Source of the DNA: Candidatus Coatesbacteria bacterium
GTDB lineage: Bacteria; JAFGND01
Assembly (NCBI GenBank): GCA_016927185.1
Contig: JAFGND010000027.1
Coordinates: forward strand, 1-36,847
Length of the DNA stretch: 36,847 nt
Direction of reading: 5' to 3'
Below the pieces are notes generated by a model. It was given only the letters and a program-made list of their open reading frames with translations. It made no database searches and was not told the origin of the DNA. This document shows, piece by piece, positions 4,120 through 21,914 of the stretch (its first letter is position 1; each line of letters begins with the position of its first letter). The position numbers and the translations under genes were made by a program.

Positions 4120-4133
4120 TCAATCCCCTTGAA

Positions 4134-6572: not shown

Positions 6573-6609
6573 TCATTTCTCCTTTTCAATCTCCTTTGTA
6601 TGCTCTCAT

Positions 6610-6637
6610 AGTATAATGAAAAATTCAATTTTGTCAA
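6610..6637 (-). promoter_or_regulatory. sigma70-type promoter of the clpC-pssA-lnt operon
   Basis: TTGACA-N16-TATACT on the - strand, about 40 nt upstream of the clpC ATG. Confidence 0.7.
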
Positions 6638-6789
6638 GTATCTTCTTTTTATAAGGTTTCCTGCATTCATCACAATTATTCATGATTCAAGTAACAATAA
6701 AAAAGATAAAGGAGTTTACTGTCAAGTGAAAGTTATAATGATTTTAATATATTGTTTTAAATCAAGAAGTTAGAGAATCCATTTCAAGA

Positions 6790-6815
6790 AAGCTGGATGA
6801 TTTTTCATCCAGCTT
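6790..6815 (-). terminator. Stem-loop just downstream of the last gene of the phage-like cluster
   Basis: AAGCTGGATGA-tttt-TCATCCAGCTT, a perfect 11-bp inverted repeat about 10 nt after the 6825 stop; short U tract. Confidence 0.6.
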
Positions 6816-6824
6816 CAGAAATAA

Positions 6825-7097
6825 TTACTTGTCGTTTCCGGAAGTCTTTCTTTCCAGAAAACTTACCCTGATCTTGAGTTCAGTCTGCATTTGCCTGTAA
6901 TCAGAAATAAGCTGCTCCATGTGCGCAATCCTCTTGTCAATATTGTCTATCTGTCTTGCAACTCTTTCTATTCCTTCCCTGTTCTGATCCCTCATATTGA
7001 TTATCTGAAGTATCAGAAGAACAAGAAGACCTGCAGTTCCTCCAATTTTTCTCAGATCAATTGTACCTTTGTCGGTCAAGAAAAGATCTTTAGTCAT
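6825..7097 (-). CDS. Small single-TM coiled-coil protein, possibly holin-like
   Basis: RBS GAGGAG; one hydrophobic helix (IGGTAGLLVLLILQII) followed by heptad-rich sequence; last gene of the cluster. Function inferred from position and architecture only. Confidence 0.45.
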   Translation of the reverse strand: MTKDLFLTDKGTIDLRKIGGTAGLLVLLILQIINMRDQNREGIERVARQIDNIDKRIAHMEQLISDYRQMQTELKIRVSFLERKTSGNDK

Positions 7098-7104
7098 TTT
7101 CTCC

Positions 7105-8814
7105 TCATTTCCAGTCTATGAATATTTCCTTTCCTATTCTTTCTGCCCATGAGCCCACCAGATGCGAGAATTCCTTAAGGACTTCCAGCCTTTGCATCAA
7201 GCCTTTCTCATCCTTGTCACAAAAATTAAGCTTGTTTTCAAGCATCAATGTCCTGCTCTGGATTACATGAACAAGAAGAAAGTAATACAGCGGATTTGCT
7301 TCAATCCCCTGCTTGAGCAGATGGAAAGCATGCTGTATCATTTTCAATCCCTCTGTTTCTCCTTTCTGCAAATTATCAGTAAAACTGAATGCCATCTGAT
7401 GGAAATGATAGCAGAAATAACTTATCCATTTGAGATAACTTATTGCCCTGCCTGATTTTTCATACCAGTTCGCCCAGTTTGCCTTTATCTCATCGCAAGA
7501 TGGATTTTTAATTTCCTCTCTTGAAAAAAACTTGCCTTCTCTTTCAAGGACTTCGTTCAAATCAGTATTGATTTCAGCCCCGTCAATAAAAAGCCCATTT
7601 CTTGTCGTATTGATTACCCTGCACTTCTTTTTCCTTATGAAATCAGAAAATGAGTTCCTGAAAATAAGCCATTCTTTTCTTGTAATGAACTCTCTTCCAT
7701 TCTCCTCAATCATTATGCATCCTTCTTCTGAAATAGAGTAATCTTGAGGCACAAAATCACAATGACTTTTTCCATCTTCATAGCAGAGATTCTGACCTGC
7801 AAGTATTATTGGGGATGCCCCCATGTGATAAGCTGCATGCAATGCCATATTAGCTGCAGAAGGTCCGGTATCCAGAAGAAAGCCTTCCATCTGGAGATAC
7901 CTGAAATGGCTGTAAGGTCTGAAGATATTGATAATCTGTCCCTTCCAGTTTGCATACAATGATGGATGAACAACTGGAACGCTCAGAAGAACAGTATTTC
8001 TTGAAAGCTCTTCTGGTATGTCCTTCAGGAACTCAGCTGTTTTTGCAACTCTTTCAAGCGTGCATATGAAATCAATTGAAAGACCTGACAATATGAGTTT
8101 TCTTGCCACTGCATCAACTGCAAAAACAAGGAATTTGTCTTTATGCTTTTTTAAAATCTCCACTCTTTCTTTGTCAAGATCAGTTCCTGCTGATATTACT
8201 ATTGCAGGAATACCGACATATTTATCTTTTAAAACGTCAATTCCAGGATTGTTGCATATGACAGCCATGTTCCTTACCATGTGCTTCAATCCATTGAATG
8301 AATCCTCCATGTCGTCACCATAGACAAACAGGGCATTCTGGCATGACGCTTTGATAAGCTCGTATTCATCCTCATATTCGTTTCTTGCGCATGCTACATA
8401 ATGAGTTGAAAGATAACCTCTCAAATCCGTTTTTCTTATTGTATCAGTTATTGCATCAGCAAGAGAGTATCCAGCAAGATTTGCAGCCCAGAGGAAAATG
8501 ACAAGCCTGTCTTTCCTTACAAGGCTTTCTGCAATAGGAAGATTGTGTACTGATGATACAAGTGCTTCAGGATCTCTCTCTACAAGCAGTATCCTTTCAA
8601 TCTCAGGATGCCTGTCAATATGCTCAAGAAGGCTTTCCGAAATGCCCAGGGAAACAAGGAATTTATGCCTTGAAGTTTCGTTGATTTTCCTTGATTCCGG
8701 GATTTGTGAAACAAATGTGTTAGCTGGAAAATTTTCTTCCTTTATCCCTAAAGCTGCAAGATTTCTTTTAATTCTGTCATCATGATGGATTTCTGTATCT
8801 GTAAGTGATTTCAT
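7105..8814 (-). CDS. MAF_flag10/DUF115 (motility-associated factor glycosyltransferase / MptE-like) family protein
   Basis: PAIVISAGTDL, VFAVDA, DFICTLE, GPSAANMALHAAYHMGASPIILAGQNLCY, VINTTRNGLFIDGA resemble DUF115 signatures. Start probably ATG 8814 (track gives 8874). Confidence 0.8.
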   Translation of the reverse strand: MKSLTDTEIHHDDRIKRNLAALGIKEENFPANTFVSQIPESRKINETSRHKFLVSLGISESLLEHIDRHPEIERILLVERDPEALVSSVHNLPIAESLVRKDRLVIFLWAANLAGYSLADAITDTIRKTDLRGYLSTHYVACARNEYEDEYELIKASCQNALFVYGDDMEDSFNGLKHMVRNMAVICNNPGIDVLKDKYVGIPAIVISAGTDLDKERVEILKKHKDKFLVFAVDAVARKLILSGLSIDFICTLERVAKTAEFLKDIPEELSRNTVLLSVPVVHPSLYANWKGQIINIFRPYSHFRYLQMEGFLLDTGPSAANMALHAAYHMGASPIILAGQNLCYEDGKSHCDFVPQDYSISEEGCIMIEENGREFITRKEWLIFRNSFSDFIRKKKCRVINTTRNGLFIDGAEINTDLNEVLEREGKFFSREEIKNPSCDEIKANWANWYEKSGRAISYLKWISYFCYHFHQMAFSFTDNLQKGETEGLKMIQHAFHLLKQGIEANPLYYFLLVHVIQSRTLMLENKLNFCDKDEKGLMQRLEVLKEFSHLVGSWAERIGKEIFIDWK

Positions 8815-9190
8815 TCTTAAGTTGCACTCCTTCAAGCAAGATTTCCCCTTTGTATGCAATGAATCTATCATCAAGATATGGAAAAAAGAACCGCTTGCCT
8901 ATCCTGACCTTGTAGTTTCGGTAAATATAGGTTTTATCAGGCCAGAATATTAGTTCCTTCTTCTGATTGCATAAATTGACAAGGATTTTGTATTGTTCCA
9001 GAGATAACGCATCATAAACAAGTCTTGCCATGTACCTGTATCCCTTGTCATAAACATGAAGATTTCCTGGAAGACATTCCTTGATGCTTCTGACTGGAAT
9101 CCATTCTTCATGAAGTTCGGATGGTTCTTCAACATGAAACATGAAACCACCCGGAATATAAAATCCTGGTTGATTTGAATTATCTGACAT
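8780..9190 (-). CDS. Putative minor/distal tail protein (Dit or lambda gpM-like), paralog B
   Basis: Position in the tail module, size 136 aa, pattern shared with the neighbouring ORF. Confidence 0.45.
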   Translation of the reverse strand: MSDNSNQPGFYIPGGFMFHVEEPSELHEEWIPVRSIKECLPGNLHVYDKGYRYMARLVYDALSLEQYKILVNLCNQKKELIFWPDKTYIYRNYKVRIGKRFFFPYLDDRFIAYKGEILLEGVQLKNEITYRYRNPS

Positions 9191-9634
9191 CTAATACTCC
9201 TTGTAAAAAATCCTGTCTGACAGGTTAAGAGATTCAAACTCAATGCTTATCTGTACATTGACATTCGTTTTCAGCCATCGTAAAGGTCTGGGATAAAAGG
9301 AGTTCACGACATAGACAGTATATTCTGCAGTACCGTCTTCATGAGGCTTGAACGAAAGGGGAGCAAAGCATGTCCAGAGAGAGAAATATGTAGTGATGGC
9401 TGTTGTAGTGATATCTACTGCTGCCTTGTATCTGAATCCTGCCACAACCTTTTCTTCAACCAGATGCTCTGATGATACGTTCAAATCATTCATGAAATGG
9501 CATTTCTCATGCTCCTCCCTCAATGTCCATGCAAGTATATCTAAAGTCCTGTATGAGCTTTGCTCAGGCAGCTTTACCTGAGGCTTTCCAGTTCCTCCTG
9601 ATACCTTGCCGAATTCAGGTTCGAATAATCCCAT
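9191..9634 (-). CDS. Putative minor/distal tail protein, paralog A
   Basis: RBS AAGGAG; G(F/Y)RYxA...Y..L...LxFxP...YxV pattern shared with 8780-9190. Confidence 0.45.
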   Translation of the reverse strand: MGLFEPEFGKVSGGTGKPQVKLPEQSSYRTLDILAWTLREEHEKCHFMNDLNVSSEHLVEEKVVAGFRYKAAVDITTTAITTYFSLWTCFAPLSFKPHEDGTAEYTVYVVNSFYPRPLRWLKTNVNVQISIEFESLNLSDRIFYKEY

Positions 9635-9646
9635 ATTGTCTCCTTG

Positions 9647-12496
9647 TTAAGTGTATTTCCTTATCGTCATGCTGCATACCTTGTTCATGAAATCAAGCCT
9701 CAAGGAAACAAGGGAATACAATCCATCCGAGACTGTAGAAAACCCACTCAAGAGAATCCTGTCTTCATGAACAAGAAGCTCAGGAAGATATATGGAATCT
9801 ATGTTTATTACTGCAGCCTGCTTTCCCAGATTTCCTGAAATCACTGGAAGGATTTCCTCCACGATCCCATCTGAGATAGCCATTGATAAGTCCCTTTCAG
9901 TAACCTTGTAATTGACTGAACCATGACTTGCTTCCCTGGTACCTGAAGGAAGTGGAATACGAACGGCTATACCATTTGCTTCATGGCTGGCATTCTCCTT
10001 GTCATAAGCAAACTCAACGCTGGTGCATTTTTCAGGAGATATAGTCATTGGTTCAGTAGCATAAGCTGTCCTGGGCATGAAATAGGCTATACCTCGGTTG
10101 TCCATACCTGCATTATAATTGCATAGCCACGCAAGATCCCTGATTATCTTCAAGGAAGATGCATTAGGAGAAAACAATTCAGGGAAAAAGTGGAGTTTGA
10201 AAGTCTTTGAGCATTTGTAAAGCATACCTCCCTGATCCACGAAATAAAGGTCTTTGAAACTGAAATCAGTTACAATATTTGATATTATCCTTCCCCTTAT
10301 TATTCCAGTACCATATACATTGCTTCCCCTTTCATCAGATTGGGAAACAGCTATCTCACCGAAATCCGAAATGCTGCTTTCAGTCTGGAATTTCCTTGCA
10401 AAATAGCAGCTTCTCTGGGGATCACCTTGTATCTCTAAAGCCGGGTTTTGAAGAAGGAAGAATTTATCCTCTTCTTCATAAGTCATTGCAGGACGGGCAC
10501 TTTGAAGTCTGTATGGCTTTGCATTACTCCCGCCTGTTGTGTCATTTTCAGGATCATCTGAGCTTATCACGTATCCCTGATTGTCTATTGAAAGTACCAA
10601 ACCAGTCTCAAGTCCTCTTGTCCTGCTTTCTATTGTTTCAAGTGCAGTTCCAACAGTATGAAAGCCGAAAACTGTAAGATAATAGACACCATTCGGGTAA
10701 CAGTCAAATCCGGTTGCATAAATGTATTCTAATTGCGATTCTGAACCAGCCCAGCCTCTGTTAATTACAAGACCACCTCCCTGCATTCTTATTCCCTCAA
10801 GTGTAACTGGATTGAACATGTCTTTGGGATTTGCAAGATCCTGATTATATCTTCTCAGTGTGCAAAGTGAATAATAGCTGAGATCCTTGCCATCAAGACT
10901 TTTAAACCTTTCGAAAGTGTATCTTGTGACATAAATCCTGTTATAAATGTCCACTATCAAGTCCGGCTGGAAACAGTGTACACCGACATTTGCCTTAAGT
11001 GCATGGTTTCCTCTCTGCCACTGGAGATTTAGTTCGAAGAAGGCAGTATTCTCTGCTGTTCGTGGAGCAATTCCCAGAAATGCCCACCATCCTTTTGGAA
11101 GGATAAGGCTTGTCTCTGAAGTGAAAATGACTTCGAATGAGTTTTGAAGAGTGACGAGACTTGTGTCTGCAGGACCATTTCTCCTGACAGCGAACAATCT
11201 GTATCCCTTGCTTCTGTTAGCCCATGTGTTTTGCTGATTGAAGCCGACTGTAACTCTTACTCCTCTTGACTTTGCATATTCAAACTCAAATTCTGCCTCA
11301 GCTTGTGTTTCGCAACTTCTAAGTCTGTAACTATTTATAACTTTTGTTCCAGGTATATAGAAATTGTTGCCTGAATAATTAAGGGGAAGCAAGCCACCTG
11401 TTGGTGAATCTCCCGGGGCATGATACCCGAAACCCTCGAGATTCCATATATAACCATTCCCTGCAAAGAAAAACTTGTGCATTTCAATAGAGCTTATTGT
11501 TGGCTCACTGTAAAGGAAATTGACTGATCTTCCAACAGGTTTTGCAACTGTAAGAAGCTCCCATAAAACAGGAGAAGTTGAAGTAGTTGTCCATGATGTT
11601 GAAACATCAACGCTGCCTTTTGAAGTCCATGTATCTGCATTCAGTCTCTCAAGCCTGTGTCTTACAGGTGCAGACTGTCCCGCCTCCTTGAATGCCCTGT
11701 AAAGATAGAGGTCAGATGCTGTATCTGGCAGTGGAGACATAGCAATGGCAAGAAATGTTTCCTGAAGAGCACTTTCAAGGGCTGTTGTAACCTCTTCAGT
11801 ATCCATGTCATATACTATCAATTTTGCCGAGTGTTCTTCATTGCATTGCCCGTCGAAATTATCATAATACATTATCCCGTCCTGGGAAGTATTGACGGCA
11901 GGTTTTCTTGCAATGAAGTAAATCCTCTTCCTGAATGCATCAAGAACCAGATTTCTGGGGCTGTATGACAGAAGGCTTTCCTGGACTTTTTCTGGAACAA
12001 GCCTTTTCAAAGGGTTGGCTATGAACAGGTCCCTTGATTTAAAAACAGGGCTTTCAGTTAGCATGCCTTCCAGATTGTCGATGCTATTGAACAAGGTTTT
12101 TACTGCATATTCAGCTTCAAGAGGATCCCTTCTGAACATGCCGTTTTCATAGTCAACCAGCCTGAAAGACGCATTATTATTAAGCGTTTCAAGGGGATTC
12201 CTTGCACGCAGCCTTCTCTTCTGATAACCTGAAGCTTCTATTTCAGATACATTTCCAGTGAAAACTCTTATTGGATTGACATTTGGATATTTGCTGTTGT
12301 CTGTTATCTTCTGGAAAATAAGTAACCTTCCATCTTTCTGCTCAAGCATTGGAATTGTTGATACTGACAATGTGCTGCTCACAATATCAATTTGAACCTC
12401 AGTTACATAAGCGCTTGTGTCGAAAGATGCAGGGGAAAGTGAAGTAACACCTGATTTCAGGCTCACACTGCTTATTGAACCAGTTACGCTAGACAT
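9647..12496 (-). CDS. Large putative tail-tip / host-recognition protein (949 aa)
   Basis: Position after the tape measure; IFTG-like VFTGNVSEI near the N-terminus, beta-rich centre, C-terminal DRILL...YSLVSLRLDF typical of hub/Tal ends. No precise family recognised. Confidence 0.55.
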   Translation of the reverse strand: MSSVTGSISSVSLKSGVTSLSPASFDTSAYVTEVQIDIVSSTLSVSTIPMLEQKDGRLLIFQKITDNSKYPNVNPIRVFTGNVSEIEASGYQKRRLRARNPLETLNNNASFRLVDYENGMFRRDPLEAEYAVKTLFNSIDNLEGMLTESPVFKSRDLFIANPLKRLVPEKVQESLLSYSPRNLVLDAFRKRIYFIARKPAVNTSQDGIMYYDNFDGQCNEEHSAKLIVYDMDTEEVTTALESALQETFLAIAMSPLPDTASDLYLYRAFKEAGQSAPVRHRLERLNADTWTSKGSVDVSTSWTTTSTSPVLWELLTVAKPVGRSVNFLYSEPTISSIEMHKFFFAGNGYIWNLEGFGYHAPGDSPTGGLLPLNYSGNNFYIPGTKVINSYRLRSCETQAEAEFEFEYAKSRGVRVTVGFNQQNTWANRSKGYRLFAVRRNGPADTSLVTLQNSFEVIFTSETSLILPKGWWAFLGIAPRTAENTAFFELNLQWQRGNHALKANVGVHCFQPDLIVDIYNRIYVTRYTFERFKSLDGKDLSYYSLCTLRRYNQDLANPKDMFNPVTLEGIRMQGGGLVINRGWAGSESQLEYIYATGFDCYPNGVYYLTVFGFHTVGTALETIESRTRGLETGLVLSIDNQGYVISSDDPENDTTGGSNAKPYRLQSARPAMTYEEEDKFFLLQNPALEIQGDPQRSCYFARKFQTESSISDFGEIAVSQSDERGSNVYGTGIIRGRIISNIVTDFSFKDLYFVDQGGMLYKCSKTFKLHFFPELFSPNASSLKIIRDLAWLCNYNAGMDNRGIAYFMPRTAYATEPMTISPEKCTSVEFAYDKENASHEANGIAVRIPLPSGTREASHGSVNYKVTERDLSMAISDGIVEEILPVISGNLGKQAAVINIDSIYLPELLVHEDRILLSGFSTVSDGLYSLVSLRLDFMNKVCSMTIRKYT

Positions 12497-13286
12497 AAAT
12501 CACTCTTTCCACTTTTATCTTGCTTAATGAATAATATGCTGATCTCAACTGATAATTGTTTGCTACAGAGCTGTTCCAGAAATGCCCATGTCCAACTCCA
12601 AAGCCTATTCTTTCTGGATTGTAGCTAATGCCATCATAATAAAAAATGACTTCATTATTTATGGATATCTTGAAACAGGGAACTCTGCCAGAGGAGAAAT
12701 TGACTTTCCAGTTCCATTCAGTTGATCGCATGAAATTCCATCCCAGATATGGCTTGAGGGATCTGAGCATCTTTATTTCACCCTTGTCTGTTATTCCAGC
12801 CCATAATCTGGTCTTGAACTGACCGCTTGAGAAGAAAGGCTCATTTATGGTATGGTATGCAATGCAGAACTGAAGAGAATTTGAAAGCCCTGCATCCATG
12901 CCTGCAATGAAACAAACCTCACCTGAAGGATTGTCAAGGCTTTCAACAGTGAATGTTGCCTGCCATGAGTCAGTCAAATCTCCCAGTACGCTGCTTTCAG
13001 GATATATTACAAGCGGATATTGTATTATTGTCTTCCCAGCAGAGAATGGATTGACTGAGCCTTCTTTTGGAACTCCTGTGTCAATAAGCAGCTTGTTTTT
13101 GGAAACTTCGCTGTTGAAGGCATAGTAGCCATCATTATCGAAGCTGTAATTAAGTGTTTCGAATGAACTGAAACCATCATGGAAATTTTCAACTCTCCAT
13201 GGACCATCCCATGCAATGCCGACAGGGAAATCAACACCTGCCGGTTGCATCTCAAGTGTTTTCCAGACCGAAGAAACTTCCTGCAT
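12489..13286 (-). CDS. Putative tail-associated beta-rich protein
   Basis: Directly after the tape measure, overlaps the next gene by 8 nt; aromatic and beta-strand-rich. Confidence 0.5.
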   Translation of the reverse strand: MQEVSSVWKTLEMQPAGVDFPVGIAWDGPWRVENFHDGFSSFETLNYSFDNDGYYAFNSEVSKNKLLIDTGVPKEGSVNPFSAGKTIIQYPLVIYPESSVLGDLTDSWQATFTVESLDNPSGEVCFIAGMDAGLSNSLQFCIAYHTINEPFFSSGQFKTRLWAGITDKGEIKMLRSLKPYLGWNFMRSTEWNWKVNFSSGRVPCFKISINNEVIFYYDGISYNPERIGFGVGHGHFWNSSVANNYQLRSAYYSLSKIKVERVIYV

Positions 13287-13289
13287 ATT

Positions 13290-14816
13290 CTATCCTTTGA
13301 AAAAAGATATTGAGCGGAGTTCTGGGATAAGCACGTCCTTAACCCATATCCGCACATTATTCCTGTCAGTTCCATAAAGATTTTTTATCTCTATGTTTAT
13401 GGAGGGAGGCTGGTTTTCTGTAACACCTTTCCTGATGCCGCTTTTAAAAGGAGCAATATTCCTTGATTCAGAAGGTTCAGAAAGCATTGACTTTGGTATT
13501 ACAAGTTCACCTGCATGAAGCATTGCAAGCTGATCCCTCTTTATCAATCCTCCCTCAGAAAGCCCTGCAATAAAGGATCTTGCACTTCCATAAAGAGCAT
13601 ACCCGGCAAGAATTTCCGGAAAATCCTTAATGGCAGACAATCCTCCTGTAATTATCGAATTGGCTATTGCATTCACCTTTGCTACAAGCAGCTTTGCTGC
13701 CGTGTAATCAAGAAGAGATAATGCAATATTCTTAAGCATTGTCTTCATTCCATGCTCCTGCCCCTTTATCCCGGCAATCAATCCCTCACCAACAGCACTT
13801 CCAAGATTCTGCATCAAGAAAGCAGTCTGTTCCACTTTCCTCTGAGTATCTGACGCAATCTGGGATAGTATCTTGTCATGCAGTCCCTGAAGTCTTCCAA
13901 GTTCTTCTTCGGAAGCCAATCCAGCCTGCCTCATCATTGCAATCTCATTTTCTATCTTCAGTACAAAAGCCTTTGGATCCTGCGTTGTTTTTGCCTCTTC
14001 GGCAAGAAGCGAGTATTCCTTTCTGAAGGATTCTTCACGCTCCGCCTTTTCTTTCAACATTCCATGTTTCCTGATTTCCACTTCAGCTTTCATGGCATCA
14101 AGCTGGTATTTTTCACTAAGTTTGTAATAATCTCTCAGCAGGGCAAGATGACCTGATACTTCTGTCTGCCATATTTCCTCTTTTCTCCTGCTTGTCTGTT
14201 CTTCAGATGAAAGGTTCATGAATTGAAGTTTTGCACGTTCCTCTGAAATCTTGTATTGATTCTGAAGTTCCTTTACTGCTTCCTCATCGAAATAAGTACT
14301 GCTTGCGGAAGTTCTCATGACATCTTCCACAGGATTCAGTTTCTCCAGTTTGCTGCTGATGCCTGAAAGCACGCCATACAACTTTGCTGCATTTGACGCT
14401 GCATCAGAAAAAGAGCTGCTCCATCTGCTTCCCTGGCTGTTCAGCTCATTGAATATGGAACCTGTTGCATCAAGCAGCGAGGAAGTTTTAGATATTGCCA
14501 TCCCGGTGCTTTCCCATGCACCAGAAAGAGCTTCAGCAGGTGCAGATGTGCTTTCCGAAAGGCTCAGGATGTTTGCGAATAAGTCTGCCACTGGTTTTGC
14601 GGAACTGCTGATGCTGGATAATTCGTTGCTCCACATTGACAAGTCCTTCCTTGTCTTCTCCACTGACAGAATTACGTCCTTGTTACTGTTTGCAAGAGAA
14701 TTGAAGCAGGCAGTGCCTTTATTCTCTAATTCCCTGAAATCCTGCTTCATTGTATCAAGTAACTGCAGCAGGTTTTTCGCTCCCAAGAGCAAATCAAGTG
14801 AATTGAAATCAGCCAT
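13290..14816 (-). CDS. Tail tape measure protein (about 508 aa)
   Basis: Helical Ala/Ser/Glu-rich sequence with C-terminal GLSEGGLI...AMLHAGELVIP typical of tape measure ends. The true start is probably ATG 14816 after AGGAGG, coupled (TAATG) to the frameshift ORF. Confidence 0.85.
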   Translation of the reverse strand: MADFNSLDLLLGAKNLLQLLDTMKQDFRELENKGTACFNSLANSNKDVILSVEKTRKDLSMWSNELSSISSSAKPVADLFANILSLSESTSAPAEALSGAWESTGMAISKTSSLLDATGSIFNELNSQGSRWSSSFSDAASNAAKLYGVLSGISSKLEKLNPVEDVMRTSASSTYFDEEAVKELQNQYKISEERAKLQFMNLSSEEQTSRRKEEIWQTEVSGHLALLRDYYKLSEKYQLDAMKAEVEIRKHGMLKEKAEREESFRKEYSLLAEEAKTTQDPKAFVLKIENEIAMMRQAGLASEEELGRLQGLHDKILSQIASDTQRKVEQTAFLMQNLGSAVGEGLIAGIKGQEHGMKTMLKNIALSLLDYTAAKLLVAKVNAIANSIITGGLSAIKDFPEILAGYALYGSARSFIAGLSEGGLIKRDQLAMLHAGELVIPKSMLSEPSESRNIAPFKSGIRKGVTENQPPSINIEIKNLYGTDRNNVRIWVKDVLIPELRSISFFKG

Positions 14817-14965
14817 TATCCTCCTGACATTATTTGCCAAAGCGCATGATCAAAATACATGAAAAGGGATTCGCTAATTCTGAATCCAAGTAATGACAGT
14901 TTCCTGAGTATCATTCCTGCCAGCAAGCCTGAGGTTATCATTTCGCATCCATCCTCGTCACAGTT
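14816..14965 (-). CDS. -1 frame extension of the tail assembly chaperone (gpGT-like C-terminal part, 49 aa)
   Basis: Open -1 frame NCDEDGCEMITSGLLAGMILRKLSLLGFRISESLFMYFDHALWQIMSGG* runs from the A9 tract to a TAA overlapping the tape measure ATG. Confidence 0.7.
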   Translation of the reverse strand, partial: NCDEDGCEMITSGLLAGMILRKLSLLGFRISESLFMYFDHALWQIMSGG

Positions 14966-15441
14966 TTTTTTTCCAGATCCTCCCTCAGTATTTCAGATGC
15001 AGCCCATGTCTGGACAAATAGCAATCTTACTGCCTCTATATAGGCTTCCAGGTCTTCATCAAGCCTGATGCGGGATGAATACTTGAGAATTTCCCTTTTT
15101 AGCTCTGATGGAGTTCGCTCAAGCACGGAAGTGCATTTGTCTTCATCCTGATTTGCAAGCAGATAGAGTATCAAGGCTACGTTTTCAACGGAAAGTGAGA
15201 TCTCTGCCATATCCTTCAGGGGAAAAGCATTCTCAAGCAGAATGTAGAAGCTGAGCTTTGGTTTCGGGATTTTCAATCCATCTGGTCCTTCAATCTCCTT
15301 TTTCAGTAGAGTTGTCATATTAGAAGCTTTGGCAGCCTTTTTTCTTGTTTCTTCTGCTTTTTTCGCTTTCACCTTCTCCTTGACTTCCATTGTTCTTTTT
15401 AACCAGTGACTGTCCATATTACTCATATTTTCGAATTCCAT
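14938..15441 (-). CDS. Tail assembly chaperone (gpG-like)
   Basis: Between tail tube and tape measure; slippery GAA AAA AAA AC near the 3' end; start ATG 15441 follows AAGGAG (track gives TTG 15462). Confidence 0.75.
   Translation of the reverse strand: MEFENMSNMDSHWLKRTMEVKEKVKAKKAEETRKKAAKASNMTTLLKKEIEGPDGLKIPKPKLSFYILLENAFPLKDMAEISLSVENVALILYLLANQDEDKCTSVLERTPSELKREILKYSSRIRLDEDLEAYIEAVRLLFVQTWAASEILREDLEKKTVTRMDAK
14964..14972 (-). other. Programmed -1 ribosomal frameshift site (A AAA AAA)
   Basis: A9 run in X XXY YYZ register at the position conserved in long-tailed phages. Confidence 0.7.
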
Positions 15442-15491
15442 ATTACTTATCTCCTTTTTCAAAGACCCGCTTTGCAGCGAGTCTTGTTTAA

Positions 15492-16247
15492 TTAATCGTT
15501 GAAATAAATGACGATATCGCCATCAATAAGGTTATCTGCATGCGCATCAAAACCGAATGGAGCATTTTTTCCAGTATCTCCACCGAAATCGAAACCCGAT
15601 GTTCTTCTCACTCTCTTCAGGTAGATAATGCAGTCCTTGAAAGCATTGCTACCCGTAGCGATAGGGGATGCGAATTTCGTGGATATATACATTGCAAAAG
15701 TCCTTGGAAGATCGTCTGGAGCGATTGTAACTGCAGCACCGGTTGTGTTCACATAGGGATAAGTGAGATCCACAATCGTGTCTTCAGCACTATTGAAATG
15801 TATTACAGTACTACCTTCTGCAGTATGGGTGAACTGGAAATGTCCATTGATCGTGAAAGATGAAACCCAGACATAACCTTTGCCAGTTCCTTTCCCGACA
15901 ACTTTCATTTCTCCCTGCCCAGAAGGGGTTTCTGAGAGAACTGCATCAGAAGATATAATGGTTTTGCTTTCCCTCTTTAGTGAAATCCCTCCATCATAAG
16001 ATACGCTTCCTCCAGTGAGACTTACAAGCCCTCTCGGATTTATCGTAAGGAACTTGAGTTTCAAGCTTACATCCTGGCTTACCGGGAGATAGTATTTTCC
16101 CGCAGAATCACCCTTGACAAGCTCAATGTTCTCTGTTTCGAAGGTGATCCTTGCTTCTTGAATCTCACCGAATTCAACCTTGTTAGTAGTATCGAATGCT
16201 ATTCCCTGCCCGATTAGAACATGGCGCATTCCTTCAGTAGATCGCAT
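15492..16247 (-). CDS. Major tail (tube) protein
   Basis: Position; N-terminal IGQG...EFGEIQEARITFETE strand pattern typical of siphophage tubes; RBS AAGGAG. Confidence 0.7.
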   Translation of the reverse strand: MRSTEGMRHVLIGQGIAFDTTNKVEFGEIQEARITFETENIELVKGDSAGKYYLPVSQDVSLKLKFLTINPRGLVSLTGGSVSYDGGISLKRESKTIISSDAVLSETPSGQGEMKVVGKGTGKGYVWVSSFTINGHFQFTHTAEGSTVIHFNSAEDTIVDLTYPYVNTTGAAVTIAPDDLPRTFAMYISTKFASPIATGSNAFKDCIIYLKRVRRTSGFDFGGDTGKNAPFGFDAHADNLIDGDIVIYFND

Positions 16248-16268
16248 AATGTTTACTCCTTGTTTTTG

Positions 16269-16616
16269 CTAGCTCAACTTGATACGAAATGACTTGATTT
16301 CGCCCTTGTTCCTGAGCTCATCCTTGCGCTTCTCATATCTGTGACCGAGTTTGTCCAGCAAGGTGTTGAGAACTTCAGTAAGCTCCTGTTTTCCTCCTAC
16401 ATGAGCATGAGTCTGTATAACTAATGCATGATAGTCTTCCAGGCATTCAGTAAGCACGAACTCTATTACCTGCATTCTGGCATTAAGGTAGATAAGTGTC
16501 TCATCAACATCATCTTCAGACGCCCTGCCAAGGAAGAATGAAAGCCTTGCAGTATCGAATGCGGTAAGAGTGCATAATATACCCAGATAGGTTTTCAGTC
16601 CAGATACGCTTGCCAT
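16269..16616 (-). CDS. Putative head-tail connector/adaptor
   Basis: 115 aa helical protein directly after the capsid gene; SVSGLKTYLGI resembles gp6/gp15-type adaptor N-termini. Confidence 0.55.
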   Translation of the reverse strand: MASVSGLKTYLGILCTLTAFDTARLSFFLGRASEDDVDETLIYLNARMQVIEFVLTECLEDYHALVIQTHAHVGGKQELTEVLNTLLDKLGHRYEKRKDELRNKGEIKSFRIKLS

Positions 16617-16618
16617 GA

Positions 16619-17530
16619 CTAGACTGGATTGGAGCCGAAAATGAAACGCCAGTCTGTGAAACCATAGCTGTAACGCGCATAAGCACGAAATTTTGCCACA
16701 AGCGTTTCGAATTCCTGATCCTTCTCGAACTCGAGAGGAATCCTGTCTATCCAGTACAGGAACTGCTTCATCATTGTAGTATCAATCAAAAACCAGTTAT
16801 TCTGGTCATTAAGGTATTCCCATACAAGAAGTTTCCAGCCCTTCTCATTCCATACATTCACTGTATTTGCATTTGGAAGCTGCTTGGAGCGGAGAATTTC
16901 TATTGCCTTGTTCTCAAGATGTCTTGGGACTAAAAGCAAATCAGGGATTACTCTTATTATCTGTCCCCTGTCATCTACAAATCCGCGCATTCTCTCTTCA
17001 GCATTTGCAAGAGCTGCTTCAGAAAGTTCTTCATTTCCCTTGTTTGAGAAAATGTCAGAAGAAACTCCAGAAGGAGTTCCTACGGGATGATAGTCTGAAC
17101 ATAATGACGCACCATCGCCTCCAGGGAAATCATCATTGAATGCATTCTCGAAAACGCTTGATGCATCACCCTCTATCCTGCGGAATGCTGCCACTCCTAG
17201 TGACTGAACCCTGCCTTTCATTATCTGATACAGTTCGTCATCAAAAAGCGCTCTCTCAACTTTTATTCCAAGAGCATATTCCTTGTGCGTGAACGTTACA
17301 GGGAAACCTGCAGCAGATTCATCATACTGGACTACAGCCGGATTTCCATCATGACCGAATGCCTTGAGTTGCGAAAGAGCTCCCACCGAGCGGAAAAGCT
17401 CTGATCCATTCTTGCTTTCAATATGAGTGAAAAGAAGCTCCTTTTTTCCAGGATGCATCTGATAGGTATTAAAGAAGATCTCTCTCAATGCGGGATACAG
17501 AATATCCGCAAAATCTGCACTATGTAACAT
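16619..17530 (-). CDS. Major capsid protein (HK97 fold, Mu gpT-like family)
   Basis: 303 aa; YALGIKVERALFDD, GGDGASLCSDYHP, PDLLLVPRHLE, WFLID, ARYSYGFTDWRFIFGS are typical of this capsid family. Confidence 0.88.
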   Translation of the reverse strand: MLHSADFADILYPALREIFFNTYQMHPGKKELLFTHIESKNGSELFRSVGALSQLKAFGHDGNPAVVQYDESAAGFPVTFTHKEYALGIKVERALFDDELYQIMKGRVQSLGVAAFRRIEGDASSVFENAFNDDFPGGDGASLCSDYHPVGTPSGVSSDIFSNKGNEELSEAALANAEERMRGFVDDRGQIIRVIPDLLLVPRHLENKAIEILRSKQLPNANTVNVWNEKGWKLLVWEYLNDQNNWFLIDTTMMKQFLYWIDRIPLEFEKDQEFETLVAKFRAYARYSYGFTDWRFIFGSNPV

Positions 17531-17533
17531 AAC

Positions 17534-17974
17534 TTATCCCTTCGAAATGACAGTTCCTGTGAAACAGAATTTACAGGTCTGCCCTTTTGTGTCTTTCTGA
17601 AGAAGGTATAATGTACCATCAACAACATCAGCTGCATCAACCATATCAGAGGATGAAGCTATATCAACAGTGTTCTTTCCAGGAAGAAATCCTGCTGCAG
17701 GAGTTCCTGAATAGGGTGCTTCCCAGACCTGATATGGTGTCACTCTGTAAAGTTTTACAAGCCTTCCTGCGGAGACTGTTCCTGCCTCCACATCTGCAAC
17801 GCTTATTCCCAGAACATCATCAATTGCATCTGTTACTGGTATTGCATTATTTATCTCTGTTCCATGCTTGAAAACCATGCCAGCGATTATTGCAGAAGTG
17901 GTTCCCAAAGTCCATTCCTCGACAACTGGACCTGAGCAGTTGCCTGATAAATCGTAACGGTATTTGATACTCAT
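17534..17974 (-). CDS. Putative capsid decoration/cement protein
   Basis: About 146 aa, Gly/Ala/Val-rich, between scaffold and capsid; VLGISVAD pattern; start probably ATG 17974. Confidence 0.55.
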   Translation of the reverse strand: MSIKYRYDLSGNCSGPVVEEWTLGTTSAIIAGMVFKHGTEINNAIPVTDAIDDVLGISVADVEAGTVSAGRLVKLYRVTPYQVWEAPYSGTPAAGFLPGKNTVDIASSSDMVDAADVVDGTLYLLQKDTKGQTCKFCFTGTVISKG

Positions 17975-17989
17975 TAGTCTGCCTTTCAA

Positions 17990-18367
17990 TTATTTCTTGT
18001 TTCTTGCATAATCTGAATAGTCTATGCCAAATCCCTCTGCAATATCTCTTTCAAGTGGAGAGAGGGAAGATGATGGTTTCATGCGGGATGAAGCAGGGAC
18101 AGTATCTATAACTTTGTCCAGCACCTGCCTTGAAATCTCTATCTGTCTTTCAATTTCATAAACAGAATTGCCATTAACAAGATCAGCAAGAGGTCCTTCT
18201 ATTCCTTCATCTTTCAGGCGCTCACTTCTGTAAATTGAAAGCTTCATTCTTTCAATCTCCTCCTTGAGTGTCTTGTTCTCGATTTCAAGATTAGACAATT
18301 GAATGTCATTTTCATTTACAGTTTCGGGTTTTTCAGTATTTATTCCCTTTTCTTCGATTTCGTTCAT
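17990..18367 (-). CDS. Putative capsid scaffolding protein
   Basis: Acidic N-terminus, coiled coil, C-terminal LSPLERDIAEGFGIDYSDYARNKK resembling scaffold capsid-binding tails; ATGA overlap with portal. Confidence 0.65.
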   Translation of the reverse strand: MNEIEEKGINTEKPETVNENDIQLSNLEIENKTLKEEIERMKLSIYRSERLKDEGIEGPLADLVNGNSVYEIERQIEISRQVLDKVIDTVPASSRMKPSSSLSPLERDIAEGFGIDYSDYARNKK

Positions 18368-19641
18368 ATTTTTTCCTTTCCTTTGTTTTCATTATCAAGA
18401 CGAGCTCTTTCTTTCTCTGGATTGTTGATGAATGGATGAATTTCCAGGGCAGACTCCCTGCTCAGGAGACCTCCCTGTATGCTGCTTGTGAGATTGGCAA
18501 TTATCTCTGTTTCATTTGTAGGAAACGAGAGATTGAATATTATTTCATCAATTCTTTCATTGCTTTTCGCTGCTTCATTGAGAAAATTGAACATTTCCCT
18601 GAATTTGAAAGACAGTCTTGAAGAATGAAGTCTTGCTTTTGTTTCTGCGTCCTTGTAAAGAAGCTTTATCGTGACACCAGCTACATTTCCTGCAAGCGAG
18701 TTCTTGTCCACAAGAGGGGTACAGCTGAGATTGAATATTGTAGTTTTCAGTTCATCCCTTTTCTCCCTGAAACTTTCTGTTGCAAGCTCTCTTGGGACGT
18801 ATTTCACATCAGCTTCACTACCAGAGACAAGCAATATTTCATCTACTCCACGCTTGAATATAGTGCGGGTAAAATATACTCCATCATCCATTTCCTTTTC
18901 AGCAGAAGTGGTTCCGGAACCAAGATTCTCTATATTCTTCAGAACCAGCTGCGGGAAACCATGATAATCAAGTATATCAGACCAGTCGCTTTCATGAGCA
19001 TTGAATGCATCCTGGAGAGCAAGAAGACCGGTCAGATCGGAGATTCCGTACCTTGACTGGCTTGCATTGAAACCTACAGCGAAATGGAAAAAAGGCAATC
19101 TGTTGAAACCATGCAGATAACTTCCCTCATATTTGAAATCCGAGTTTTCTGACAGGGAATTATCAGTACTGAATCTGTGAAGCATTTTGTCCTGATACAA
19201 GTCCAAAATGAGTTTTTCATGCTTGACGTTGAGTGGTGTATAAACACGCAGGACTTCCTTCAAGGAGTCAGTCTTTTCATCCCAACTTGCAAATATCTCA
19301 GAGTCAAGTATTGCCTTGTAAGAGAATTCTCCGTCCTTCCTGTAGCATAAAGCCCAGCTGTTTCCATGCAGCAAGGCAAGATGGACAATATCCATATTGG
19401 TAAGATGATTACCCAGTTCAGGAGAGAAAGGCTTGGAGATGAGAATTGAAGTTGCTTCATCAATTATCCTTTTGCAGAAATTGGCAACTATGCGGTATCT
19501 GCGTCTTCTCCTTGGATCATGTAATATTGCATGATCCCCAAGATAGTAAGAGCTGAATTTTTCATTCAGTCTGTGCCTTTCTTCCTGTTCTTCATCGAAT
19601 ATCAGATTCCTTATGTTATCCTTGAGGAGGTTTTCAGTCAT
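18364..19641 (-). CDS. Phage portal protein (SPP1 gp6-like, about 425 aa)
   Basis: YYLGDH, NFCKRIID, HGFNRLPFFHF, GISDL, LQDAFN, AGVTIKLLY, LSRESALE. Start reassigned to ATG 19641 after AAGGAAAGGA; the track start 19947 overlaps the opposite-strand gene. Confidence 0.88.
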   Translation of the reverse strand: MTENLLKDNIRNLIFDEEQEERHRLNEKFSSYYLGDHAILHDPRRRRRYRIVANFCKRIIDEATSILISKPFSPELGNHLTNMDIVHLALLHGNSWALCYRKDGEFSYKAILDSEIFASWDEKTDSLKEVLRVYTPLNVKHEKLILDLYQDKMLHRFSTDNSLSENSDFKYEGSYLHGFNRLPFFHFAVGFNASQSRYGISDLTGLLALQDAFNAHESDWSDILDYHGFPQLVLKNIENLGSGTTSAEKEMDDGVYFTRTIFKRGVDEILLVSGSEADVKYVPRELATESFREKRDELKTTIFNLSCTPLVDKNSLAGNVAGVTIKLLYKDAETKARLHSSRLSFKFREMFNFLNEAAKSNERIDEIIFNLSFPTNETEIIANLTSSIQGGLLSRESALEIHPFINNPEKERARLDNENKGKEKI

Positions 19642-19744
19642 TTGTATCCTTTCCTTAAAAAAGCTTGACTTTACAATATATATACTCATTCCGCTTTCTT
19701 CTGGAGTATAAAGAAATCTTTTGCAAGGCAATGAATTATAGAGT

Positions 19745-20545
19745 ATGAACTCAGTCTTCTCTAGAAAAGCAGTTCTTACAAAATCGGGAAGGATTTTGCT
19801 GGCTTCTGTATTGCTGTTTTTCCTTACAGGTGTCTGGCAAATTCTCATAGGCATTAATGATAACCAGTATTTCCGTGCTCTTGCAAAAGAGATAAGAAGA
19901 AGTGCAGTTGAAGACAGTTCATTTGCACTTGCTTCTATGAAACACATTCATATTGAAGTGTTGAAAAAGCCTCAAAACCAGGATCTGCCATATCTGGATT
20001 TGTTTTATCAGACTTTCCTGAATGGGTGCAGAAACAAGACTTATCTGATTTATCACACTGGATGGCTTGACAGTCCATGTAGTGAGGTTTCCAGGGTTCT
20101 CATCATTCTTCTCGATGCAGGAGGAGTGAAATCCCACAGGATACGCTCTGGTGGTCATACGCTTGTTGAAGTGTTTTTTGATGGCAAATGGCATTTGTTT
20201 GATCCGACATTCAATTACGTATGGAGAAAGGACAGTGGGGAAATTGCATCCTTTGTCGAAGTCAAGGCAGATACAACTCTTCTTTTCAGGATAAGGAAGG
20301 ATCATCCGGACTTCAAATATGTCTTTAATGAAGATTTCAGGATGGCTTGGAAAAGATTTCCTCTTCCTGTTATAAAGCATATCCTGCTCCTTTTCTATAC
20401 TGAAGATGAGCTGGTTTCATGGAATACTCCCTACTGGATGATGAGACCGCCAATGATTGGTGCATTAATTTCATTTTCCTTGTCAGCATTACTCTTGCTT
20501 GTTTTCTCTGTCATTGTATATAGAAAGGCGAGAAAAAGAAGCTAG
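19745..20545 (+). CDS. Membrane-anchored transglutaminase-like (papain-fold) protein
   Basis: Cys-His-Asp triad in family context (PCSEVSR...GGHTLVEVFFDGKWHLFDPT); N- and C-terminal TM helices. Confidence 0.75.
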   Translation: MNSVFSRKAVLTKSGRILLASVLLFFLTGVWQILIGINDNQYFRALAKEIRRSAVEDSSFALASMKHIHIEVLKKPQNQDLPYLDLFYQTFLNGCRNKTYLIYHTGWLDSPCSEVSRVLIILLDAGGVKSHRIRSGGHTLVEVFFDGKWHLFDPTFNYVWRKDSGEIASFVEVKADTTLLFRIRKDHPDFKYVFNEDFRMAWKRFPLPVIKHILLLFYTEDELVSWNTPYWMMRPPMIGALISFSLSALLLLVFSVIVYRKARKRS

Positions 20546-21876
20546 CGCAGCATTGTCCTTTCTATTATATGTCTGTCTATGCATCTTCCCAGTGGATACA
20601 GATTTATTATCAAGTATCTCAAGGCATCTGCAAAGTGGTCATGAACACCATCTTTCCTTGGTATGTCAGATAGTGAATGTACCGAGGGCGGATAATGATA
20701 ACCTTCAAGGCTTGTAATAAGACTGGTGCATTTGCTGTTTATGAAAAGTCTTGAAGTTTCACCATACTCACCAATGAGATTTCTAACTCTTTCTATTGTA
20801 CCAGCAAGCATCCTGTTTTCCCTGTTTGTAGAGTAACTTACAGGAAGTCCTGCATTCCTGAACATGATTATCTCGCTTGTTCCAAAACTGTTTACTGATT
20901 TACCTGCAGGATCACAGTAGATTGCCTGAATCTGCCGGAAATACTTCCTTGTTTTTATCCAGTCTATAAGCTCCAGAACTGAAACATCGCATTCACCGAA
21001 CTCATCGAATACAATCAATCTGTCATCCATCTGATATGCTGAAACAATGGCTGGATGCCTGAAACCGAAGTCTATTCCAAGATAGACTGAAATATCCATA
21101 GACGGTTCATCATTACAGATGTTCTTGTTCCTGCTGAAGCCCTTGTACACTCTGTCTTGAGGGGCGACAAATTCAGCTCCGAATTCCTGGGCGAATCTCT
21201 CAGCTGACATTATTTTCTGGCTTTCCTTGAATTCAGGATCATCTGCTCCCTGAGGAAAGATTCTTGAATTGTCCCAGCTTGGCGATTTCAATGACCACCA
21301 TGCTGTGAAATTCTGATCCTGTCCTAAATTGAACATTTCCTCGAACCAGTTATGACCTGCTGGTGTGCTTATCAAAATTGCCTTTCCCTTCCTGTCAGTC
21401 AGTGCAGGTCTCAAGTAAACATCCCAGATTTCGTGATTTACCCTTGCTGCTTCGTCTATTATAAGCAAGTCAAGACCTTCTCCCAGAAGTGAAACCGGAT
21501 TGTCAGCAGTCTTGGCAATTATACTGCTATCCGTAGTAAGTTCTATGCTCCTTTCTGTCTTGTTTATTCTCTTTATCTTGTCTTTTGAATGAAAGAGAAG
21601 ATTGTGTTTCACTTCATTGAAGATTCTTCCGGTGAGATCATAAGTAGGTGCAACAATCCAGATCTTCTTGTTTTCCTCTATTGCAAGGAGTTCTGCTTCA
21701 CGTGCTGCAGCTACAGTTTTTCCCCAGCGTCTTCCGCAAACCAGCACCCTGAATCTTGCATTTTCACTATGGAAAGCAAGTTGCGCGTTATGCGGGGTAT
21801 AATCTATTTCCGAGAAATAGTTTCTTGCAGCATCATCAAGGATGCCGCCCGTTGTGATTGAAATATTTTCGTTCAT
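20542..21876 (-). CDS. terL: Terminase large subunit
   Basis: PHNAQ adenine-binding motif, Walker A GRRWGKT, Walker B LLIIDEA, coupling motif ISTP, nuclease GIDFG...YCDPAG...DHFADALRY. Confidence 0.95.
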   Translation of the reverse strand: MNENISITTGGILDDAARNYFSEIDYTPHNAQLAFHSENARFRVLVCGRRWGKTVAAAREAELLAIEENKKIWIVAPTYDLTGRIFNEVKHNLLFHSKDKIKRINKTERSIELTTDSSIIAKTADNPVSLLGEGLDLLIIDEAARVNHEIWDVYLRPALTDRKGKAILISTPAGHNWFEEMFNLGQDQNFTAWWSLKSPSWDNSRIFPQGADDPEFKESQKIMSAERFAQEFGAEFVAPQDRVYKGFSRNKNICNDEPSMDISVYLGIDFGFRHPAIVSAYQMDDRLIVFDEFGECDVSVLELIDWIKTRKYFRQIQAIYCDPAGKSVNSFGTSEIIMFRNAGLPVSYSTNRENRMLAGTIERVRNLIGEYGETSRLFINSKCTSLITSLEGYHYPPSVHSLSDIPRKDGVHDHFADALRYLIINLYPLGRCIDRHIIERTMLR

Positions 21877-21885
21877 TTCACTTAT

Positions 21886-21914
21886 AGTATACGTATTTTT
21901 TTTCGTTTTGTCAA
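21886..21914 (-). promoter_or_regulatory. Near-consensus sigma70 promoter directly upstream of terL
   Basis: TTGACA-N17-TATACT, with only 9 nt between the -10 hexamer and the terL ATG. Confidence 0.75.

Follow-up and report, generated by a model that had tools for sequence, protein, structure and literature searches.

A phage-derived, non-autonomous head-tail module between clpC and uvrD in a Candidatus Coatesbacteria genome

Head-tail gene cluster between two core genes

Contig JAFGND010000027.1 of the Candidatus Coatesbacteria assembly GCA_016927185.1 (36,847 nucleotides, analysed in full and hereafter called the window) carries a phage-derived head-tail module on its minus strand (6825–21914), between clpC and uvrD/pcrA. 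This element is a non-autonomous module, intact in the respects that can be read and fixed at one chromosomal site. It is inherited together with its flanks in several populations, among which the differences are mostly synonymous. Our verdict is that of a non-autonomous, selectively maintained defective prophage module, and the best single reading of its function, to which we give a probability of about 45%, is that it makes a particle resembling a gene transfer agent (GTA) or PBSX. The window is an entire contig of a 2.99-Mb genome (109 contigs, 93% complete), which is the sole representative of its phylum in the species set compared; the 40 genomes available as relatives all belonged to other families of the same domain.

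The cluster comprises 16 open reading frames (ORFs), 15 on the minus strand and one on the plus strand; the long genes of the window are on the minus strand throughout. All 15 minus-strand frames were uninterrupted over 15 kb. Core genes adjoin the cluster on both sides, with the start of clpC (6572) 252 bp away on the left and the stop of uvrD/pcrA (22200) 323 bp away on the right. A profile search of the genome returned four integrase-family matches, all on other contigs and none on this one, and Pfam, NCBIfam and PHROG scans of the cluster ORFs found no repressor, replication or anti-termination gene. Direct repeats resembling att sites were not found around the cluster beyond chance-like families of 14–31 nt. 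Lacking integrase, repressor, replication gene and att repeat, and bounded by core genes on both sides, the element is not an autonomous prophage. A preliminary description of the locus had claimed intact frames, the absence of integrase, repressor and replication genes and an inability of the element to replicate itself, all of which is borne out by the 16 ORFs. It had also treated the whole range as head and tail genes, which had to be given up: the last two genes are not recognisable as such, and a plus-strand gene interrupts the series. Of the ordered packaging, head and tail set that it proposed, the large terminase subunit (TerL), the SPP1-type portal and the Mu gpT-like capsid protein stand; a complete set could not be shown, with no small terminase subunit (TerS), neck or endolysin gene recognised. 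From the portal gene to the last gene, the gaps ranged from −35 to +29 nt, with one exception of 97 nt at the chaperone frameshift region, and a clear Shine-Dalgarno motif was found at about nine of the 15 minus-strand starts. The good ribosome-binding sites and tight stop-start coupling described earlier were thus found in part only, as TerL has no such motif and its gene is separated from the portal gene by 852 nt.

Promoter- and terminator-like signals were found at both ends of the cluster. Upstream of TerL, a promoter-like site (TTGACA-17 nt-TATACT, 21886–21914, minus strand) matched the consensus at 11 of 12 positions. The ATG of TerL lies 10 nt past the end of the −10 box and no Shine-Dalgarno motif precedes it, which implies that the TerL mRNA would be nearly leaderless; clpC, by contrast, has a 30-nt leader with AGGAG. 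In a 16-kb scan, the sites before TerL and before clpC (6637–6610) were the joint-best sigma-70-like sites (11/12). The scan returned 37 promoter-like sites versus 35 in shuffled sequences, a total that is not above chance, so that their placement alone is suggestive. A second promoter-like site (TAGAGA-17-TATAAT, 19735–19763, minus strand), which ranks among the next-best of the scan and is recognised by its consensus only (10/12 matches), lies 46 nt upstream of the portal start. After the last gene, the cluster is closed by a hairpin resembling an intrinsic terminator (6785–6814, minus strand), which consists of a 12-bp stem, an AAAA loop and a following UUUCUU. Its predicted fold (−20.4 kcal/mol, z −6.4) was matched in stability by none of 200 shuffles; a pattern scan did not pick it up.

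The first gene of the cluster encodes TerL (20542–21876, minus strand, 444 aa), which matched PF03354, PF03237, PF17289, phrog_2 (E 1e-45) and PDB chain 4znj (E 1.3e-25). Its ATPase and nuclease motifs are intact, as the preliminary description had held: the motif columns, which we take to be Walker A, Walker B, the coupling motif and the three nuclease Asp residues, align with 21 relatives and with the solved chain 4znj. An Asn in the column of Arg139 of 4znj, presumably a functional residue, was considered as a possible defect and rejected, as the column is variable in the relatives and a Lys/Arg four residues earlier is kept.

Downstream of TerL, the single plus-strand ORF (19745–20545, 266 aa) overlaps the TerL stop by 4 nt. 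Two hydrophobic segments can be made out in the encoded protein, together with a Cys...His...Asp pattern that is, as judged by eye, reminiscent of a transglutaminase-like protease. No match was found in Pfam, PHROG or PDB, and the sole NCBIfam row was weak (E 0.053). The GC skew turns positive at this ORF, its codon usage is host-like, and it was covered in all four metagenome runs compared (see below); it is probably a moron. A 153-aa minus-strand ORF in the same gap, which has no family match and is antisense to the 266-aa ORF, was read as spurious.

The order of the following genes is portal, scaffold-like protein, decoration protein, capsid, one small gene, tail tube, G/GT chaperones, tape measure, a 265-aa protein and a 949-aa protein. 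The portal protein (18364–19689, minus strand, 441 aa) is of the SPP1 Gp6 type (PF05133, E 1e-48 to 3e-48; phrog_64, E 2e-54). A longer form starting at 19947 was rejected in favour of a start at about 19689, since the family match opens near residue 96 of the long form and the gene caller gave the 441-aa form. Between the portal and capsid genes, an acidic coiled-coil protein (17990–18367, minus strand, 125 aa) occupies the scaffold position, and this together with a weak match to phrog_172 'head scaffolding' (E 0.063) suggests a scaffold-like protein. The major capsid protein (16619–17530, minus strand, 303 aa) is Mu gpT-like, of the Phage_capsid_4 type (PF10124, PF25209, phrog_371). No prohead protease was found in the cluster. 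The one gene in the head-completion or neck position, assigned by position only, encodes a helical 115-aa protein (16269–16616, minus strand), for which a single-sequence AlphaFold2 model gave a three-helix bundle (pLDDT, predicted local distance difference test, 65.6).

Directly upstream of the capsid gene lies a gene for a 151-aa protein (17534–17989, minus strand) that, on the basis of its position and predicted fold, is taken to be a capsid decoration (cement) protein. In IMG/VR relatives, too, members of its family immediately precede the capsid gene. An AlphaFold2 model built on 16 homologs (pLDDT 83.8) matched capsid entries of HFTV1, phi29, Pam3, T1 and TW1 in Foldseek (E 9e-5 to 7e-3). 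The title of the TW1 entry names a capsid-stabilizing protein, and the other chains are, we assume, of a corresponding kind, with that of phi29 presumably being the gp8.5 head-fibre base. One of the 16 family members matched Phage_cement_2, and a sequence search with the family profile gave no match. In relatives (L046, L050, L091, L092 and about 25 IMG/VR loci) the capsid gene is preceded by two decoration genes in tandem, or by a single fused one of about 260 aa; the window has one copy of 151 aa.

Among the tail genes, the major tail tube protein (15492–16247, minus strand, 251 aa) is predicted to be of the YomU/Phi13 type, an assignment that comes from a single source of evidence, the ESM Atlas (feature score 0.97; template modelling score 0.71–0.75 to PF27173 YomU_Tube clusters). 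It is followed by a predicted pair of tail assembly chaperones (14816–15462, minus strand), namely a G-like protein of 174 aa (14938–15462) and a GT-like protein of 215 aa that would be produced by a −1 shift and end at 14816. The predicted slip site GAA AAA AAA ACT, with a run of nine A residues (14964–14972), is in phase for A AAA AAA, and this run is the only one of seven or more A residues on the sense strand of the 15-kb cluster. Past the slip site the −1 frame remains open and overlaps the start of the tape measure gene. A −1 frameshifted G/GT arrangement is described as conserved for lambda and SPP1 (PMC6316719). The putative tape measure protein (13290–14840, minus strand, 516 aa) was assigned by its position and by weak matches to phrog_15478 (E 0.0013) and phrog_305 (E 0.0072). 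The next protein (12489–13286, minus strand, 265 aa) had no match in Pfam or PHROG and no meaningful one in a sequence search of the PDB, and is placed as a candidate distal-tail (Dit) protein by position only. The following 949-aa protein (9647–12496, minus strand) occupies the position of the tail-tip (Tal or hub) protein. Its structural leads in the ESM Atlas are weak: the rows lean towards gpD or late-control-D-like, hub-like proteins, and the Atlas model is poor (pLDDT 0.43). It is essentially an orphan, matching itself and one weak relative (E 3e-5) among 1.84 billion representatives. Two further genes, encoding proteins of 147 aa (9191–9634, minus strand, 12-nt gap) and 136 aa (8780–9190, minus strand, 0-nt gap), both have good Shine-Dalgarno motifs and gave nothing meaningful in Pfam, PHROG, NCBIfam and PDB searches.

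The last two genes are of another kind. The first of them (7105–8814, minus strand, 569 aa from the ATG at 8814) encodes a Maf/PseD-like, MptE-family putative nonulosonic-acid protein glycosyltransferase, with a match to PF01973 above the cut-off (E 4.5e-34) and a match to PDB entry 5mu5 (E 5.7e-6), which we take to be a Maf structure. Its match to the NCBIfam model FlagModPseD (E 2e-33) reached 116 bits against a cut-off of 670, and no Flagellin_N match was found in the 93%-complete genome. It was therefore rejected as a PseD equivalog and is described as having a Maf-like domain. The gene is the only MptE match of the genome, which also holds two NeuB-type nonulosonic-acid synthases, and it had no tblastn match in 50,697 phage records. 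Nor did a literature search on Maf with prophages or tail fibres list a paper on a phage-borne Maf, as judged by title or abstract. The co-orientation of the gene with the tail genes and its 35-nt overlap with the upstream gene raise the idea that the glycosyltransferase might modify the particle or a surface protein. The product of the last gene (6825–7097, minus strand) is 90 aa long and has a single hydrophobic segment ahead of a coiled coil; searches of Pfam, PHROG and NCBIfam gave weak coiled-coil matches only, and a holin- or spanin-like function is a lead suggested by these features.

Relatives, population variation and composition

Relatives of the cluster proteins were distant. In phages, the closest TerL was about 31% identical (1270 records, all below 60%), the closest capsid protein about 32% (106 records) and the closest portals 23–25% (208 records). 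Among 5.8 billion protein clusters, the capsid protein matched one fragment at 99% identity, with two conservative residue differences in 200, followed by relatives at 43–44% (103 matches), and the portal had one real relative at 35%, followed by matches at 22–23% (nine matches including itself). For comparison, the relatives of the host UvrD in this collection were 94% and 69% identical, both on contigs shorter than 3 kb, and the next were at most 47% identical. A scan of IMG/VR with the capsid protein alone gave no match. A metagenome scan with TerL returned eight loci, five with long matches (24–25% identical) and three with short end fragments (31–58%). The loci with the closest capsid proteins (80 from IMG/VR and 14 from genomes, 33–43% identical) share with the cluster the capsid protein, the decoration protein and sometimes TerL, and no other cluster protein. 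Nothing near-identical to the element, and hence no full prophage of which it could be a part, was found in the phage, viral and metagenome collections searched.

Near-identical DNA does occur in metagenome runs, among them ones from sediments and biogas fermenters. In seven runs, which come from three studies besides the probable source, 37–74% of the sampled words of a stretch spanning the right junction were found, and in an eighth run from a fourth study 6%. Contigs of four of these runs (two studies) were compared over positions 4001–24000, where they covered 30, 30, 30 and 27 of 30 bins, with no distinction between flanks and cluster. In run X2, the listed pieces differed by 0.4–1.5% from the window, and a 2930-nt contig bridged clpC into the cluster (6215–9144). 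No contig in the four runs joined clpC directly to uvrD, and the right junction (21980–22134) was not bridged by the pieces listed from them. Run X3 contained a second lineage inside the tail genes, represented by a 576-nt contig of 94% and a 534-nt contig of 90% identity, both gapless. The cluster is thus present in near-identical strains (about 99%) of four further runs and in a lineage at 90–94% identity; the absence from close relatives that the preliminary description had named as a sign against it was not seen.

Among the 40 best-supported of 643 differences, 21 fell into cluster ORFs, of which 19 were at third codon positions (P = 8e-8 for at least 19 of 21 under an even spread) and 16 were synonymous. 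The five replacements were conservative (I/L, E/D, D/E, I/M and L/F). Of the variants of the 90–94% lineage in the portal gene, six of seven were synonymous; in clpC and uvrD together, all 16 listed variants were. As far as the listed variants go, the cluster is therefore under constraint, though somewhat less so than the flanking core genes, within a divergence of at most about 10%. Neutral evolution or pseudogenisation, which the preliminary description had named as signs against a maintained element, was not apparent from these mostly synonymous variants.

By composition, the 13-kb core of the cluster is the most atypical stretch of the genome, with a tetranucleotide distance of 0.239 that lies beyond all 304 or 299 windows in two comparisons and a GC content of 41.5% versus a genome mean of 35.8% (standard deviation 1.5). 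GC at third codon positions (GC3) was 0.37–0.42 in the cluster genes and 0.32–0.42 in the flanking core genes of the contig, versus a genome mean of 0.309. Per-gene codon-use distances, computed from a crude set of 1965 ORFs of at least 200 aa, lay at the 40th to 97th percentile, with the flanks alike. For the capsid gene, GC at the first two codon positions was 0.449, while 80 viral homologs averaged 0.459. An amino-acid make-up typical of these protein families accounts for the compositional oddity, and GC3 and codon use match the neighbours. Of the expected similarity to core genes, codon use and GC3 thus agreed and tetranucleotides did not. A reading of the cluster as compositionally foreign and hence recent was dropped, given that the GC excess lies partly in GC3, which is common to the neighbours, and partly in first and second positions, where it is typical of the families; composition is uninformative as to whether the cluster is foreign or resident. 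Two other compositionally odd regions of the genome were examined; they encode Fe-S/flavin redox enzymes and cargo of the type IX secretion system (T9SS), and no phage genes.

Known systems and competing explanations

The gene order of SPP1 morphogenesis (PMC6316719) served as the reference. The cluster resembles SPP1 in its PF05133 portal, in the order of genes from portal to tail tip, in the −1 frameshifted chaperone pair and in having no prohead protease. It differs from SPP1 in lacking TerS (gp1) and gp7, in having one small gene in place of gp15, gp16, gp16.1 and gp17, in its Mu gpT-like rather than gp13-like capsid protein, and in lacking early, replication and lysis genes; its portal is 23–25% identical to those of Firmicutes phages.

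With the GTA of Rhodobacter capsulatus (RcGTA), the cluster shares a size of about 15 kb, a content of structural genes only, flanking host genes and the absence of integrase and replication genes. A further likeness is a GC content above that of the genome, an excess owed chiefly to the first two codon positions, with GC3 equal to the neighbours (PMC7360931); for RcGTA clusters, Kogay et al. tie this pattern to cheaper amino acids (PMC7360931). The cluster is unlike RcGTA in showing no bias to cheap amino acids relative to viral homologs and no evidence of deep conservation, and it has no recognised TerS, whereas RcGTA is described as having a TerS without a DNA-binding domain (PMC11841831). 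An RcGTA-like type was rejected, as the genome has no match to the PF04860 portal or the PF05065 capsid family and the cluster has no protease, in agreement with the separate origin proposed at the outset.

With PBSX, the cluster shares the character of a chromosomally fixed, phage-derived particle module without self-propagation. In PBSX of Bacillus subtilis the tail is contractile, both subunits of the terminase are present, and the element brings a repressor and a lysis cassette of its own; none of these features was seen in the cluster. VSH-1, the GTA of Brachyspira hyodysenteriae, lies outside the Alphaproteobacteria and is of similar size, with head genes, tail genes and small membrane proteins at the end of the cluster; it also carries a recognisable endolysin and holin. 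Set beside VSH-1 by description alone, the cluster is similar in size and in its head and tail genes, and it has no recognised endolysin.

The module is best explained as the morphogenesis half of an SPP1-like siphovirus prophage whose genes for independent life were lost or never brought in. If it makes particles, the following course would fit its anatomy. Transcription by the host would start at the sigma-70-type promoters of the cluster. Heads would be built by portal, scaffold-like protein, capsid and decoration protein, and tube, G/GT chaperones, tape measure and tip proteins would build a short non-contractile tail. TerL, with no TerS to choose a pac site, might fill the heads from whatever DNA ends it engaged. 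The resulting particle, similar to a GTA or to PBSX, would be unable to propagate its own genes. True gene transfer is a narrower and less probable claim. In the strict sense, as set out in PMC11841831, a GTA packages random host DNA in pieces of 4–14 kb, has a capacity below its coding need and delivers the DNA to recipients; verified GTAs are few, with hardly any reported outside the Alphaproteobacteria, and GTAs and defective prophages are described as not separable by sequence alone (PMC11841831, PMC12946183). That the cluster is a GTA in this sense we consider unlikely. The same grade applies to the fuller proposal of an independently evolved GTA in a phylum represented by a single genome, which would combine an SPP1-like chassis, a Mu gpT-like capsid, host promoters, non-specific packaging without TerS and a recruited Maf-type transferase that glycosylates the particle or its receptor; we regard it as a doubtful one.

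Several observations weigh against a particle maker, and the main weakness of that reading is the missing TerS, neck and lysis functions. No TerS candidate adjoins TerL, none of the cluster ORFs matched TerS in the Pfam, NCBIfam and PHROG scans, and the only ORF in the 323 AT-rich bp upstream of TerL encodes 54 aa; a TerS, if there is one, may be unlinked or unrecognisable. The plus-strand ORF splits TerL from the portal gene. No stopper or terminator neck protein was recognisable among the cluster ORFs, where a single 115-aa gene stands in for the four of SPP1; the model of this protein had no Foldseek match at E ≤ 0.001, and structure comparison gave generic helical matches only. With this single small gene in the neck position, filled heads may stay unsealed or unjoined to tails. 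No endolysin was recognised among the cluster ORFs either, and with TerS and most neck genes lacking, the module may not make working particles. The capsid relatives lie on viral contigs of 35–65 kb, so that the head, if its size is ancestral, would exceed the 4–14 kb of known GTAs. A shift to cheap amino acids in the manner of GTAs was looked for in the capsid and decoration proteins and not found: relative to viral homologs, their side-chain carbon content ranked at the 91st and 94th percentile. As to constraint, the synonymous excess is that of a sample of the differences, the proportion of non-synonymous variants was higher in the cluster (5/21) than in the flanks (0/16), and a divergence of at most about 10% is too shallow to prove long-term domestication. 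Finally, an additional C follows position 10045 in a single contig of run X5 (depth 5.6), near residue 817 of the 949-aa protein and outside any homopolymer; this insertion may be a frameshift allele or an error.

The strongest competitor is an inert prophage remnant, in which the genes for lysogeny, replication, TerS, neck and lysis were recently deleted and the rest, expressed to no purpose, has had too little time to decay; the synonymous excess would then reflect the short time since a working phage, together with hitch-hiking between essential genes. This explanation accounts for the lack of virion essentials (TerS, stopper, terminator and endolysin), for a foreign gene inserted on the opposite strand and for a possible frameshift allele in one run, and it is in line with the extreme tetranucleotide and GC composition of the 13-kb stretch and with the lack of intermediate-distance relatives that would show long-term retention. 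Its main difficulty is that fragile signals have stayed intact and that synonymous variants are in excess. None of the 15 minus-strand frames is interrupted over 15 kb, the slip site is kept in phase and the catalytic residues of TerL are kept, the cluster is cleanly bordered by a consensus promoter right before TerL and by a strong terminator, and the 90% and 94% contigs contain no indels. Moreover, 16 of the 21 listed variants (six of seven among those of the 90–94% lineage in the portal) are synonymous, and the compositional oddity is accounted for by amino-acid make-up, with GC3 and codon use matching the neighbours. Because the frames are open, the TerL motifs and the frameshift signal are intact, promoter and terminator mark the borders and the differences are mostly synonymous, the module is not decaying, and we consider an inert remnant a somewhat unlikely explanation.

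A PBSX-like killer particle, in effect a tailocin with a head whose adsorption kills competitors and whose packaged DNA is an undelivered by-product, would show the same anatomy of the locus as the particle maker favoured here. It fits an orphan tail-tip protein, as expected of fast-evolving receptor-binding parts, and PBSX is reported to package 13.4-kb host fragments and yet to act as a tailocin (PMC12946183). Against it, neither lysis genes nor an xre-type regulator adjoin the cluster, and TerS is missing, whereas in PBSX the terminase has both its subunits. Nothing in the sequence separates killing from transfer. We regard this variant as improbable on its own account. A tailocin proper is ruled out, as in the preliminary description, by the intact capsid, portal, decoration protein and TerL.

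Slightly less probable again is a helper-dependent element or split system, with TerS, neck, lysis and regulatory functions supplied by another phage or by unlinked loci. GTAs are described as typically keeping accessory genes elsewhere (PMC11841831), satellites and the multi-locus RcGTA 'genome' are precedents, and in a 93%-complete genome of 109 contigs such loci may be unassembled. Searches of this genome with the TerL_ATPase, Phage_portal and HK97-capsid families found no second packaging or head locus, however, none of the 16 cluster proteins has a paralog elsewhere in it, redox enzymes and T9SS cargo are what the other odd regions examined were found to encode, and the four integrase-family matches lie on other contigs. 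An intact temperate prophage was rejected, since integrase, regulators, replication module, lysis cassette and att repeats were not found between clpC and uvrD. An assembly or binning artefact, by which a phage fragment was misjoined to the host sequence or a contig from a different organism entered the bin, would suit the contig being the most GC-rich of the bin (39.5%) and the right junction being unbridged by contigs listed from other runs, but is very improbable in view of the left junction bridged by the independent 2930-nt contig from another study, the similar depths in run X2 (about 5–7 for the cluster and 6–12 for the flanks, contig depth being a coarse measure), the compositionally typical left flank (40th percentile) and the codon use of the cluster, which matches the flanks.

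Neighbouring genes and significance of the locus

The left flank of the cluster contains lnt, a gene for a CDP-alcohol phosphatidyltransferase and clpC (4134–6572), and the right flank uvrD/pcrA (22200–24107), folP, ftsH, pyruvate kinase, an SLT transglycosylase and other housekeeping genes, with two tRNAs at 35565–35759. At the contig end there is a T9SS sorting domain (Por_Secre_tail), and another contig has more of them, which suggests that the host belongs to a lineage of the Fibrobacterota–Chlorobiota–Bacteroidota (FCB) type. Among the neighbouring genes, the pyruvate kinase (27355–29004, minus strand) is an unusual fusion, in which the PK and PK_C domains are followed by a C-terminal 4Fe-4S dicluster ferredoxin-like domain (residues ~496–545). 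In the dihydropteroate synthase (24120–25331, minus strand; 403 aa), Pterin_bind spans residues 143–382 and is preceded by about 140 N-terminal residues without an assignment, and a tandem pair of B12-binding radical SAM genes (31266–33990, minus strand; 449 and 469 aa) overlaps by 35 nt.

The locus is a compact, minimal test case, namely an intact head-tail operon that has host-type signals and lacks lifestyle genes. Should it prove silent, it would be an ordinary but unusually tidy prophage remnant. If its particles carry host DNA, it would represent an independent origin of GTAs in a new phylum, would indicate that a TerL without TerS can serve such a system, and would provide the first Maf-type glycosyltransferase tied to a phage-like particle.

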